Source of the DNA: a virus
Taxonomy: Duplodnaviria; Caudoviricetes
Reading direction: 5' to 3' (one strand)
Length of the DNA stretch: 64,000 nucleotides
IMG/VR virus record: IMGVR_UViG_3300020577_004796
Location: 9,144 to 73,143 of that record
How positions within the stretch are numbered: position 1 is the first letter of the stretch; every line of letters begins with the position of its first letter. The notes under the pieces were generated by a model. The model searched no databases. It worked only from the letters and a program-made list of their open reading frames with translations, and was not told the origin of the DNA. A program made the translations under genes and the position numbers. This document shows positions 24,635-64,000 of the stretch, piece by piece.

Positions 24635-24666
24635 TTTGGAATTGTTAATAATAAGTTGTACCTTTG
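24635..24666 (+). promoter_or_regulatory. Bacteroidota promoter driving the GIY-YIG gene
   Basis: TTTG-N20-TACCTTTG, 4 nt before ATG 24671. Confidence 0.8.
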
Positions 24667-24670
24667 TGGT

Positions 24671-25213
24671 ATGATTTACATATATACAATTACAAGTCCT
24701 ACGGGAAGGGTTTATGTGGGACAGACCATTAATCCTACAAAGAGAAAACACCTCTATAAGTCATTACATTGTAAGACACAATATCTCATTTATAATTCCA
24801 TATTGAAATATGGCTGGGATGCACATGTGTTTACTGTTATAGCAGAATTACCTATCGAATATGGAGATGATGCAGAAATAGCATATATTTCCTATTATAG
24901 GGCCTATCATACTGATGGTGGACTTAATCTTACTACAGGAGGATTACGCCCTAAAATGACTGTAGAAACAAAACAGAAACTATCTGCTGCTATTATGGGA
25001 GCAAAGAATGCCAGAGCTAAGAAACTATATCAATATACATTAGATAAACAACTCATTAAAATATGGGATTGTATGAAATGTATTGAGAGAGAACTTGGTT
25101 ATGGTACATCTTGGTTATCTATAGCAGCTAAAAATAATAAACAAGCTTACGGCTATCTATGGTCATATGAACCTCTGCAAGGGCTAGATGAATGGGTAAT
25201 CTGTTCATGGTAA
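24671..25213 (+). CDS. GIY-YIG homing endonuclease with NUMOD1-like C-terminus
   Basis: MIYIYTITSPTGRVYVGQT, LNLTTGG, AYGYLWSY. Confidence 0.9.
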   Translation: MIYIYTITSPTGRVYVGQTINPTKRKHLYKSLHCKTQYLIYNSILKYGWDAHVFTVIAELPIEYGDDAEIAYISYYRAYHTDGGLNLTTGGLRPKMTVETKQKLSAAIMGAKNARAKKLYQYTLDKQLIKIWDCMKCIERELGYGTSWLSIAAKNNKQAYGYLWSYEPLQGLDEWVICSW

Positions 25214-26955: not shown

Positions 26956-27250
26956 AAAAGCTCATTAAACTAATGCATTCTCTTACTTGTAAAGTATGTG
27001 GATGGCATATAAGACATTGTAAATGTCATTAATTTAATTCTTCAGATAGAATACAATGAAAATGTTGCGTTATATGATGCAAATTATTAAATACTTGCAT
27101 TATTCTATCTAAAGAATTAAATGCATACCAAACCTCAGAGGAGTTATATCCCTCACTGATTAGACAATAACTTAACACGGTAACAATTCTGTAATGTTTA
27201 AACTGATTCAAAAGGATTAAAATGTTTCAGTACATGGTTTTACAGGACGA

Positions 27251-27355
27251 GGAGGATGTTGGCTTGAAAGCAGCAATCATTTAAAGAGTGGGATGGCAAA
27301 TATGTTTTTTCTATTTTTATAGAGATAAATACCCTTTGGCGTAACAGCACACTCC
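27251..27355 (+). ncRNA. 23S rRNA H43/H44 (uL11-binding domain) mimic, copy 1
   Basis: GGAG-GATGTTGGCTTGAAAGCAGCAATCATTTAAAGAGT-[insert]-GCGTAACAGCAC-A-CTCC aligns base for base with 23S nt ~1052-1107. Confidence 0.8.
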
Positions 27356-27971: not shown

Positions 27972-28295
27972 ATGAACGCTAAACAAGAATTCCTAGGACA
28001 TATAGGAACCCGTATAGTAAAATGTGCTATAATACGAATAGGAGATATATATATGGATGAAGATGTAATAACTAACCTATTACCTGTAGGAGCATCTAGT
28101 ACACAGTCAGAAACATTTCTGCAGAGTATAGATAGAAATTACAATAATGGGTATGGTACTCAAGAACTATTTGGTACTATATGGTATACTGATGGTACCT
28201 GGTCTAGCAGAGGTGAATATGATGGCAGTGAATGGTGGGAACATCATAAATGCCCGGATATACCAAAAGAACTACAACAGAAGCAATATCTATAG
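27972..28295 (+). CDS. Conserved-looking phage hypothetical protein
   Basis: YNNGYGTQELFGTIWYTDGTWSSRGEYDGSEWW motif of a common small phage family. Confidence 0.65.
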   Translation: MNAKQEFLGHIGTRIVKCAIIRIGDIYMDEDVITNLLPVGASSTQSETFLQSIDRNYNNGYGTQELFGTIWYTDGTWSSRGEYDGSEWWEHHKCPDIPKELQQKQYL

Positions 28296-28503
28296 GTGGT
28301 GTGGTAGAGAATGTTGGCTTGAAAGTAGCCATCATCTAAGGAGTAGGTGAGAACCCTAAGCACAGTGGCAATCTCTGGTAATGGGAGATATGAAGTGGGC
28401 ATGGGATAAATTCAAAAGTTGGGTGGATTAAACGCCACTACCTGGTAGTCATTATACCAGCCTTTTGGTGTAACAACACACTCTGTCACATCATCTATAG
28501 ATA
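28287..28503 (+). ncRNA. 23S rRNA H43/H44 mimic, copy 2, on a 22-bp closing stem
   Basis: AGAG-AATGTTGGCTTGAAAGTAGCCATCATCTAAGGAGT-[insert]-GTGTAACAACAC-A-CTCT; closing stem 28288-28309/28481-28502 is fully paired with 4 G-U. Confidence 0.85.
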
Positions 28504-28527
28504 CTTATAGTAAAACAACAATATCCC

Positions 28528-28660
28528 CCTCTGTAGGGGTAGTGGTAGAAAATGATATATAGCAGTTAAGTCAAAGATCCGGAAAATGGCCCATGGAGGT
28601 ACTAGACACACCTGGTCATCTGCAGTATGGATATATCAGCTACCATTACCTCTACAGAGG
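28528..28660 (+). ncRNA. Long-stem structured RNA element B
   Basis: 21-bp stem CCTCTGTAGGGGTAGTGGTAG/CTACCATTACCTCTACAGAGG (2 G-U) enclosing further stems. Confidence 0.6.
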
Positions 28661-28731
28661 ATTAAGTTAACAACAGTACAGATATTAATACCTTTGTATA
28701 ACAATCACTCACAAATAAAACAACTAACAAA

Positions 28732-28823
28732 TACCTGTAGAGTATGGTGTAGAACTTAGAAAGAACTAATAAGTGTGGGTAAAATGCTGTGGCTAATAAC
28801 CATATACATCATCTCTACAGGTA
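28732..28823 (+). ncRNA. Long-stem structured RNA element C
   Basis: ACCTGTAGAG(T)ATGGTGTA/TACATCAT-CTCTACAGGT stem. Confidence 0.55.
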
Positions 28824-28838
28824 ATATAAAACATTAAA

Positions 28839-31791: not shown

Positions 31792-32167
31792 GGGCCCGAA
31801 AGGCAATCGACTTGCAATATTAAGAGCAACAGACATGCAGGGAAGGTGTGTTGACCACTAATACACGCACAACAACAAATGCTAAAGTTAGCAAAAGCGC
31901 TATGACCTTTGGTCGTACTCGCACGATTGATGTTACTTCTTTCGCCCGCCCACGTGGCCTGGCGTTTGCAGCCTAACACCACTTCTGGTGAGAAGTAAAC
32001 ACACCAAAAACTGTTTTGAAATCTCAGTAAAGGATACCTTGACGTTGGAAGTAGATGTAAAGTATGCATAACTTCATAGTTTGATAGAACAATAAACTGA
32101 TCTAAAGCATGTGAAAAGACTGTATTATTAAATTGTAAACACGTTCGTTCGAATCGAACCGGGTCCA
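31792..32167 (+). ncRNA. ssrA: tmRNA (transfer-messenger RNA)
   Basis: Acceptor GGGCCCG/CGGGTCC with G3-U70 and A73; T-arm GTTCG-TTCGAAT-CGAAC; CAGACATGC/GCATGTGAAAAGACTG pairing; tag frame 31881-31976 ends LAFAA-stop. Confidence 0.95.
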
Positions 32168-32232
32168 CGAATCCACAATAAATTTGGCGAGTCCACTTTT
32201 ATTAAGAAATTCAGCCAAGTAAGAATGGCGCC

Positions 32233-62958: not shown

Positions 62959-63549
62959 ATGACAGAAATAAATAATAATTTACTAGTACAAAGAACAGAA
63001 CAAAAAAAAGAAAGAAAAATATATTGTATTCGTGGAGCACGTGGCTACGCTGGATGGATGAATGGAACGATTGTTCCTACCATTGAAGAAGCCGACTTAA
63101 TTGTTGCTCCGGGTGGATCGGATATAGATCCTCGCTTATACGGCAGAACACAACATCACCAATTTGCATGGGGGTCTACTCGCATGGAAAATGATGGAGA
63201 GTTGGAAGATCTGAAAAAAGCCATTAGGCTGGGTAAGAAAATATGGGGGACTTGTAAAGGTATTCAATATGGTTCTGCTTTATCCGGTGGTCTTTTAGTT
63301 GCAGATGTTTCACATCCGTATAAACATCCTATAAAAACAGAAGACGGAAAAACGCTTATAGTAAATTCAATGCATCATCAGCTCTGTTATCCTTTTAATC
63401 TTCCAAAAGATGAATATCGTATCATAGGTTGGTCAGAAGGGATTTCAAATCACTATGACGATGTAGACGGGACACAAATGGAAGTTCCAGTAGAGCCGGA
63501 AATATTATATTTTCCTAAAACAAACTATTTAGGAACACAATTCCACCCT
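62959..63549 (+). CDS. Second class I glutamine amidotransferase / C26, exon 1
   Basis: PGGSDIDP, GTCKGIQ, NSMHHQ, ends GTQFHP at an intron junction; exon 2 lies beyond the window. Confidence 0.85.
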
Positions 63550-64000
63550 TAACTTGGGGGTGATAAAATCGAATGAATTGCTGGAACGCTAAAGAGAAAT
63601 CTAAGCCAATCAGCAGCCAAGCTATTTAGGAATAAATAGAAGGTTCAACGACTAATAGTATACCACCAGAACGGTGATGAAACTAACACGAGCGTTCGAT
63701 ATATATACGTTCAATTAAATATTGTTTCTCAATTAATTCACCATTATTAGCGTGAATTTGTAAAGTACTTTTGCAAAAATCAATAGCAATTTGTACCTCT
63801 TTTAGTGTTTTATACACATTTATAGTATTATTTATTACATCTGTAACTTTTATAACAAATTTTTTAGAAATAACAGGTTTTACTAACTCTGGGTATTTAT
63901 ATTTCCAAATATAACCACCTGCGGTTTTTTGATTAGGAATTTTTCTACACGTTTTATATATTCCTACTCTACATATTCCTGTTTGTCTAGCAGCTTCTGC
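63550..64000 (+). mobile_element. Group I intron in GATase 2 (5' part)
   Basis: P1 CACCCU/GGGGTG; P AATTGCTGGAA, Q AATCAGCAG, R GTTCAACGACTA; S and 3' end outside the window. Confidence 0.85.
63683..64000 (-). CDS. C-terminus of a NUMOD1-type homing-endonuclease-like ORF, antisense to the intron
   Basis: Hand translation AEAARQTGICRVGIYKTCR...KTAGGYIWKY...YKTLKEVQ...ERSC-stop. Confidence 0.7.
   Translation of the reverse strand, partial: AEAARQTGICRVGIYKTCRKIPNQKTAGGYIWKYKYPELVKPVISKKFVIKVTDVINNTINVYKTLKEVQIAIDFCKSTLQIHANNGELIEKQYLIERIYIERSC

Follow-up and report, generated by a model that had tools for sequence, protein, structure and literature searches.

Why would a phage carry, away from any ribosomal RNA gene, two RNA elements that reproduce a functional centre of the ribosome? 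The question is raised by a 64,000-nucleotide stretch of phage DNA (the window, to whose first letter all positions below refer), in which a first-pass annotation had read the segment from 28287 to 28503 as the second of two mimics of the GAC. The GAC, or GTPase-associated centre, is the portion of 23S rRNA to which protein uL11 binds and with which the translation GTPases make contact. Few RNA tertiary folds have been studied as well, and EF-G, EF-Tu, RelA-bound tRNA, thiopeptide antibiotics and at least one interbacterial toxin dock there. We use mimic as a name for the fold only, binding of uL11 or of factors by the phage RNA being a prediction. The parts of the second mimic (copy 2), with bases in E. 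coli numbering, and its neighbour in the window (copy 1) are as follows.

27251-27355, + strand: copy 1, a member of the same RNA family, with C1072, C1092-G1099 and U1082-A1086
28287-28503, + strand: copy 2, the whole GAC-mimic RNA with its extended closing stem; the MFE fold closes with 23 bp, z = -5.2
28287-28309, + strand: copy 2 closing stem, 5' arm; its H42-like top AGAG corresponds to E. coli 1052-1055
28311-28335, + strand: copy 2 H43-like hairpin, A1057-U1081; loop UUGAAAGUA, which includes G1067 and U1072 (28326)
28336-28340, + strand: copy 2 tertiary pair C1082 (28336)...G1086 (28340), whose counterpart in copy 1 is U...A
28341-28344, + strand: copy 2 lower H44, 5' strand GAGU (1087-1090)
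28345-28467, + strand: copy 2 multi-hairpin insert, 123 nt, with its own closing helix (28345-28347 with 28461-28463)
28464-28467, + strand: copy 2 UUU-G linker, the end of the insert; family-invariant (108 of 109 members among the matches listed)
28468-28480, + strand: copy 2 upper H44 and junction, with G1091, U1092 (28469), loop GUAACA, A1095 (28472), A1099 (28476), C1100, A1101, C1102 and A1103
28481-28503, + strand: copy 2 closing stem, 3' arm, pairing with 28287-28309

The register of copy 2 (window coordinate = E. coli number + 27254) is confirmed by alignment of the copies to real Bacteroidota 23S rRNA. A 33-nt pattern spanning H43 and positions 1082-1090 is found without mismatch in both copies, and has no match at all in 100 dinucleotide-preserving shuffles of the window. 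Copy 2 carries the loop UU(A/G)(G/A)AAG(C/U)A followed by (U/C/A)UAA(A/G/U)GAGU, which is the H43 motif of the family described below; after U1090 comes the insert, self-closed by a helix and followed by UUUG, and the remainder, 28468-28503, fits G(C/U)GUANNA(G/A)CACA, with A1101, and then the stem that pairs back to the 5' flank. The compensated AGAG/CTCT helix that had been annotated is there, and the long stem that extends it, originally counted as 22 bp, has 23 bp, with four non-Watson-Crick pairs that are all G-U and otherwise no mismatch; the family median is about 9 bp. By MFE none of 200 shuffles folds as well as copy 2. The G-U pairs of the closing stem appear only when the + strand is read, and it is from the + strand that the RNA is read. 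The 5' arm of the stem covers the last 9 nt of ORF 27972-28295, stop codon included. We conclude that copy 2 is probably the gene for a stable non-coding RNA.

The differences between the copies that the annotation listed at coupled tertiary positions are all present: copy 2 has U1072, U1092-A1099, C1082 and G1086 where copy 1 has C, C-G, U and A. The two inserts occupy the same site, between 1090 and 1091, copy 2 indeed having the larger, multi-hairpin one (123 nt, against 49 nt including the linker in copy 1), and they share the ending that had been noticed, a closing strand and then UUU-G, which in copy 1 lies at 27335-27338. The closing stem of copy 1 is short, GGAG/CUCC (4 bp), and adjoins no ORF end. 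The two cores are 87% identical, the mean pairwise identity in the family being 84%.

How widespread is this element? Pattern scans of IMG/VR recover more than 120 distinct elements of the same architecture. A scan with the H43 motif only gave 43 viral loci, of which 42 combine the insert with the UUUG linker and A1101, the remaining one (L037) being a true 23S gene; these 42 loci and the window copies all run from H43 through GAGU, a variable self-closed insert, UUUG and GCGUANNAGCACA to the closing stem. A scan with the 3' motif gave at least 120 loci, and 101 to 109 unique elements were parsed among the matches listed. Two other scans returned mostly chance matches: filtering on the 5' motif left 7 of 117 viral loci for a 14-base pattern of the U1092-A1099 form (U-type), and about 10 real loci of 120 in bacterial genome contigs. 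These roughly 10 members in bacterial assemblies lie mostly on MAG contigs, from Firmicutes, Actinobacteria, Proteobacteria and Bdellovibrionota.

The insert, always at its one fixed site, ranges from about 20 to about 370 nt across the members among the matches listed. A module G(G/A)UA(A/G), placed 16-18 nt from the insert 3' end, recurs in 46 of 97 inserts among the matches listed, against 18 expected. It is seen as CACCCC-(G/U)-UAAC or GAAA-(U/C/A)GG-UAAGG, often after AUGAUGU (L032, L035, L064, L075, L086, and 28440-28460 of the window), and the third pair of its small hairpin covaries as G-U, G-C and U-A. At some loci (L052, L084, L095, L128, L129, L137) there seems to be another insertion besides, following A1077 on the 3' side of H43.

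Members are also carried by cultured phages: Cronobacter phage GAP32 (L480:2493-2738, that is, record 289513-289758), Pectobacterium phage CBB, Serratia phage BF, the Erwinia pEa_SNUABM phages, Yersinia fHe-Yen9-04, Xanthomonas XacN1 and XbC2, Acinetobacter ME3, Pseudomonas pf16 and Aeromonas 4_4572. The element lies there in an unannotated gap or under a 'hypothetical protein' call, and the latter is also the case in Kaldavass and Milchi. The jumbo phages GAP32, CBB, BF, XbC2, Kaldavass, pEa_SNUABM_12 and others have a full member, 81-90% identical with the insert included. PA5oct, which we checked as a possible expression record for its ncRNAs, is absent among the blastn matches.

Is it the fold that selection maintains? 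The first-pass annotation held that it is, and named covariation among homologues as one check. In 54 non-redundant members standard pairing is found in 91.8% of cells, against 68% in shuffles, and the covariation score is 0.60, compared with 0.16 for shuffles and at most 0.19 for slid partners; none of 500 shuffles reaches 0.60. Changes on both sides occur in the closing stem, at 1057/1081, 1058/1080 and 1062/1076, and in the insert-closing helix, the last covarying at all 4 of its counted pairs. In the same 54 members G1087-C1102 is found in 53, U1090-A1101 in all, and a standard pair at 1082/1086 in 46. Thus with more than 120 distinct phage elements whose helices covary far above shuffled and slid controls, selection on the folded RNA is borne out.

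The coupled positions behave as had been claimed. Among the matches listed, the members with C1092-G1099 have C1072 in 99 of 99 cases, and those with U1092-A1099 have U1072 in 9 of 9, position 1072 having been left free in the searches; the triple therefore switches together in 108 of 108 members. At 1082/1086, among 101 members in the matches listed, U-A is found 42 times, C-G 36 times and A-U 8 times. Since the U-type members have U-A, C-G or A-U at 1082/1086, the two switches are unlinked, and across the family the coupled swaps are mutually independent. The triple C1072/C1092/G1099, as well as that of G1071 with G1091-C1100, has been described in the ribosome (PMC2952862, PMC8614978). In the phage RNA the 1072/1092/1099 triple and the 1082/1086 pair hold H43 against H44.

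Invariant or nearly so are U1060, G1071 and A1088 (108 of 109 members each), A1069, A1073, A1077, A1084-85, and G1093, U1094, A1095 and A1098 (109 of 109), the pair G1091-C1100 being likewise present in 109 of 109; the looser positions are 1067, 1068, 1070, 1096 and 1097. Of A1067 and A1095, the exposed positions that contact ligands in the rRNA fold, the second never changes; at the first, G stands in 18 of the 109 members, both window copies among them. At 1096, G is found in 23 of 109, all these counts being over the matches listed. Throughout this large phage family purifying selection acts on the GAC fold, down to the triple and the pair at 1082/1086. That the copies are not decayed rRNA captures, as the annotation also maintained, is supported by the covariation, and by A1101, the UUUG linker and the self-closed insert, which are common to all members and absent from rRNA. 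By the same token A1101, the linker and the shared insert site argue for what would be a single origin of the family and not serial captures from host rRNA.

What distinguishes the two copies from each other? The nine U-type members are copy 2 and L021, L185, L223, L237, L240, L247, L252 and L254. Each copy has closer relatives in other phages, the nearest to copy 2 being L185, itself U-type, at 96%, so that a duplication followed by a coordinated switch is not required. Two copies in one record are rare, found in 1 of 29 carrier records, the remaining 28 having one each; what seemed to be tandem copies in L006, L083, L121 and L144 involved false 5' matches, and in G111 a further 3' motif matched by chance. 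In 8 other phage records, 3 of which are at least 97% complete, a U-type element stands alone; the idea of copy 2 as a specialised second copy is therefore rejected, and we take it as an equivalent, isosteric form. We infer that copy 2, with its U-U-A triple and its C-G pair, keeps the same target by isosteric replacement, and nothing points to different ligands for copies 1 and 2.

Tracking of the host was considered as well and rejected. Three real Bacteroidota 23S genes have the C-type triple with U-A at 1082/1086. Copy 1 has A1076 with G1062, a mismatch found in 8 of 109 members among the matches listed, and it is Bacteroidota-like at A1076 only; since A1076 comes without its partner U1062, there is no clear mimicry of a host variant. 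In most bacteria position 1062-1076 is G-C. The mimic family is mostly G-C there too, and Bacteroidota 23S (L481-L483) has U1062-A1076 or C1062-U1076.

The phage of the window is, by its portal and large terminase, a distant crAss-like phage, its TerL being about 25% identical to those of crAss-like phages of Bacteroidota. The GAC element is absent from its 15 nearest IMG/VR relatives (TerL 53-61% identical; 8 of them are 98-100% complete), so that it was either acquired sideways or lost by the relatives, and is dispensable. For 108 unique elements among the matches listed, all 427 tRNA genes within 3 kb lie on the element's strand; 68 of these elements have a tRNA within 3 kb and 42 have one within 100 nt. 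Neither window copy is close to a tRNA. When ORFs within 4 kb were clustered over 125 loci, no conserved protein neighbour emerged beyond close relatives. No uL11 homologue or domain is encoded in 5 mimic-bearing phages, so any uL11 ligand would be the host's.

In the window itself, the ORF upstream of copy 2 (27972-28295) is early and belongs to phrog_3972, with small proteins of no assigned function as neighbours; synteny is of no help, as IMG/VR contains no relatives of a neighbouring 464-aa protein, and a sigma-70 promoter scan was uninformative (18 sites, 20.5 expected). Further long-stem cassettes lie on the + strand at 28520-28666 and 28730-28826, and also at 27032-27122. One such cassette has 21-nt arms, 90% complementary, around 91 nt, and the 5' arms of the cassettes resemble the closing stem of copy 2 (AATA..CT(A/G)TAG..GGTAGA); the two downstream of copy 2 have similar long closing stems and different interiors. 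Such hairpins may serve RNase III-type processing of the early transcript. Copy 1 is preceded by an inverted repeat of 22 nt.

A probable phage tmRNA at 31792-32170 (+) is called by ARAGORN, with the tag AQQQMLKLAKAL, and matches RF00023 over its full length at 41.7 bits (gathering 47), E = 4.6e-15 in a 1-kb search. Genes for tmRNA occur at 5 of 124 family loci and at 1 of 141 control loci, one example being L011:8864-9133, about 200 nt downstream of its mimic. The window also holds a group I intron (RF00028, 63540-63765, +, 58.3 bits), and an ORF at 24656-25213 (+) matches GIY-YIG homing endonuclease families.

What could such an RNA do for a phage? In the mechanism that we propose, the ends of the RNA would fold it into a self-closed copy of the GAC, comprising the top of H42, H43 and H44, with the variable extra arm leaving H44 between 1090 and 1091. 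Most relatives, lying inside tRNA arrays, would be released by tRNA processing; in the window phage the RNA would sit within an early mRNA, and its 23-bp stem, unusually long, probably allows double-strand processing, by RNase III for instance, or stabilises the RNA. Off the ribosome, the RNA would be a decoy that titrates a GAC ligand, most likely free host uL11, and such titration could blunt uL11-dependent signalling, for example RelA activation. The isolated rRNA GAC domain, as a 58-nt fragment, binds uL11 by itself, and hence the phage RNA would be expected to act as a uL11 decoy. The invariant stem of H43 and the junction agree with this, as they do with folding alone. On balance we favour, with moderate confidence, the view that the free-standing folded GAC mimic titrates a GAC ligand, most likely host uL11.

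Several considerations temper this view. Conservation of the core can be explained by folding alone, so that uL11 is not singled out among the GAC ligands, and the tips at 1067 and 1096 are somewhat relaxed, which speaks against a faithful factor-binding site. Against the decoy stands also that titrating only free uL11 would bring no obvious quick benefit to a lytic phage. Moreover, the uL11 explanation gives the UUUG linker and the recurrent insert module no role. A stronger version, which we entertain only tentatively, is that phages of many lineages use the mimic as a weapon, one that would disarm uL11-dependent signalling such as the RelA stringent response or intercept a GAC-directed effector of immunity or of a competitor. 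Were this true, the mimic would be without precedent as an rRNA-domain decoy and would found a new class of RNA for host takeover or counter-defence, with two isosteric versions coexisting in the window phage.

How do other explanations compare? Phage tRNAs are thought to offset anticodon nucleases, and by analogy the mimic could be a substitute substrate for a toxin, from the host or a competitor, whose target is the GAC: an enzyme modifying or cutting H43/H44 would be drawn to the decoy and the ribosomes spared. There is a precedent for a toxin at this site, Tre23, which ADP-ribosylates H44 of 23S rRNA at nucleotides 1095-1098 and thereby blocks EF-G GTPase (PMC8661411). The invariance of G1093, U1094, A1095 and A1098 would suit such a substrate, as would the fact that the element is accessory, patchy (witness the 15 nearest relatives) and found among tRNA genes, traits typical of counter-defence cargo. 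However, there is free variation at 1096 and 1097, two positions of the Tre23 target, a literature search gave no anti-phage system targeting the GAC, and the family extends over phages of many phyla, in contrast to the sporadic occurrence of such toxins. We regard a toxin substrate as a serious rival, though an unlikely one. Doubtful to a greater degree is the idea that the GAC fold serves only as a stable, protein-coated handle and that the variable insert, its cargo, is the working part. The wide range of insert lengths at one fixed site, the two neighbouring cassettes with similar long closing stems and differing interiors, and the module recurring in about half of the inserts are what it would lead one to expect. 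What is conserved is nevertheless the GAC core; cargo is not required, since members with minimal inserts of 22-45 nt exist, copy 1 included; and a mere handle would not need invariant exposed positions such as A1095.

It is more improbable again that copy 2 is a cis-acting element of the early transcript, serving 3'-end formation or RNase III processing for the upstream gene, with its likeness to rRNA secondary. Such a role would account for a stem that begins within the last 9 nt of ORF 27972-28295, for a length of 23 bp that is rare in the family and for the recurrence of similar long stems along the early region, but it leaves unexplained the conserved interior and the tRNA-array context without a conserved upstream gene, and copy 1 has only its 4-bp stem with no ORF end adjoining. 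Finally, one might think of a captured and decaying fragment of host 23S, or of remnants of LSU exons around a group I intron at site 1090. In favour are an identity of about 80% between the 5' half and real 23S, and an insert with U before it and G as its last base, which is the pattern of group I introns. Yet the flanks are not rRNA, being an ORF end and another cassette, with no H41/H45 continuity; the covariation and the family-specific common features oppose decay; and 23S of the host phylum has U1062-A1076, U1101 and a C-type triple, unlike copy 2. As for an intron, the insert ends pair with each other, inserts go down to about 22 nt, and Rfam has no match at the site although the same search found RF00028 at 63540-63765. 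This last explanation is already contradicted by the evidence above and we give it hardly any credence.

The preferred reading, a decoy for a GAC ligand, thus concerns a large phage RNA family for which no earlier description was found in Rfam or the literature. Searched at the gathering score and with E up to 10, Rfam has no match at copy 1 or copy 2, and on 13 family loci it gives only tRNA, tmRNA and one intron; our literature search found no description of a phage GAC-mimic RNA. A survey of structured RNAs in IMG/VR reported no overlap with rRNA predictions (PMC10690425), and the GAC-mimic family may be among its anonymous candidates.

Why should this matter? A natural family with well over a hundred distinct members reproduces the GAC outside the ribosome. 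It amounts to an independent evolutionary experiment on the GAC fold, in which the bases of the triple change together and three alternatives occur at 1082/1086. It may point to an unrecognised phage interference with translation control or immunity, and it would offer RNA engineering a compact natural module predicted to bind uL11 and thiopeptides. Since cultured carriers exist, among them GAP32, CBB, BF and pf16, the question is directly testable.

The closest known relative is the bacterial 23S GAC itself (E. coli nt 1051-1108), where uL11 and thiostrepton bind; the phage RNA shares its secondary structure and loop sequences. Kept or covarying are U1060/A1088, G1071 with G1091-C1100, the 1072/1092/1099 and 1082/1086 contacts, and the loop closure G1093-A1098. 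In contrast to the rRNA domain, the phage RNA is a free-standing gene with non-rRNA flanks and its own closing stem; it has an extra helix and the UUUG linker between 1090 and 1091; and it has the pair U1090-A1101 where rRNA has U1101, with 1067, 1068 and 1096 relaxed. The mRNA leaders of r-proteins (L10, L1) are likewise extra-ribosomal RNAs that reproduce the rRNA binding site of a protein, and the competition with rRNA for an r-protein would be alike if uL11 binds the phage RNA. Leaders of this kind act in cis, in front of bacterial r-protein genes, and reproduce no more than a small motif, whereas the phage RNA copies the whole 58-nt domain nearly base for base and is found among tRNA genes, with no r-protein gene nearby and no match to an Rfam leader.

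Among phage RNAs, ROOL and GOLLD are large phage-borne non-coding RNAs near tRNA islands (PMC12286853). The GAC mimics resemble them in their phage and tRNA-array context and in having no partner protein gene; they differ in being much smaller and in their rRNA-like conserved core, which is not reported for ROOL or GOLLD, and the Rfam models of ROOL and GOLLD have no match in the window or in 13 family loci. Phages are likewise known to interfere with processes of the host through RNAs that imitate one of its own, namely phage tRNAs and the antitoxin mimic pseudo-ToxI (PMC3475682). What sets the present family apart from these is the molecule imitated, which here is a functional centre of the ribosome.
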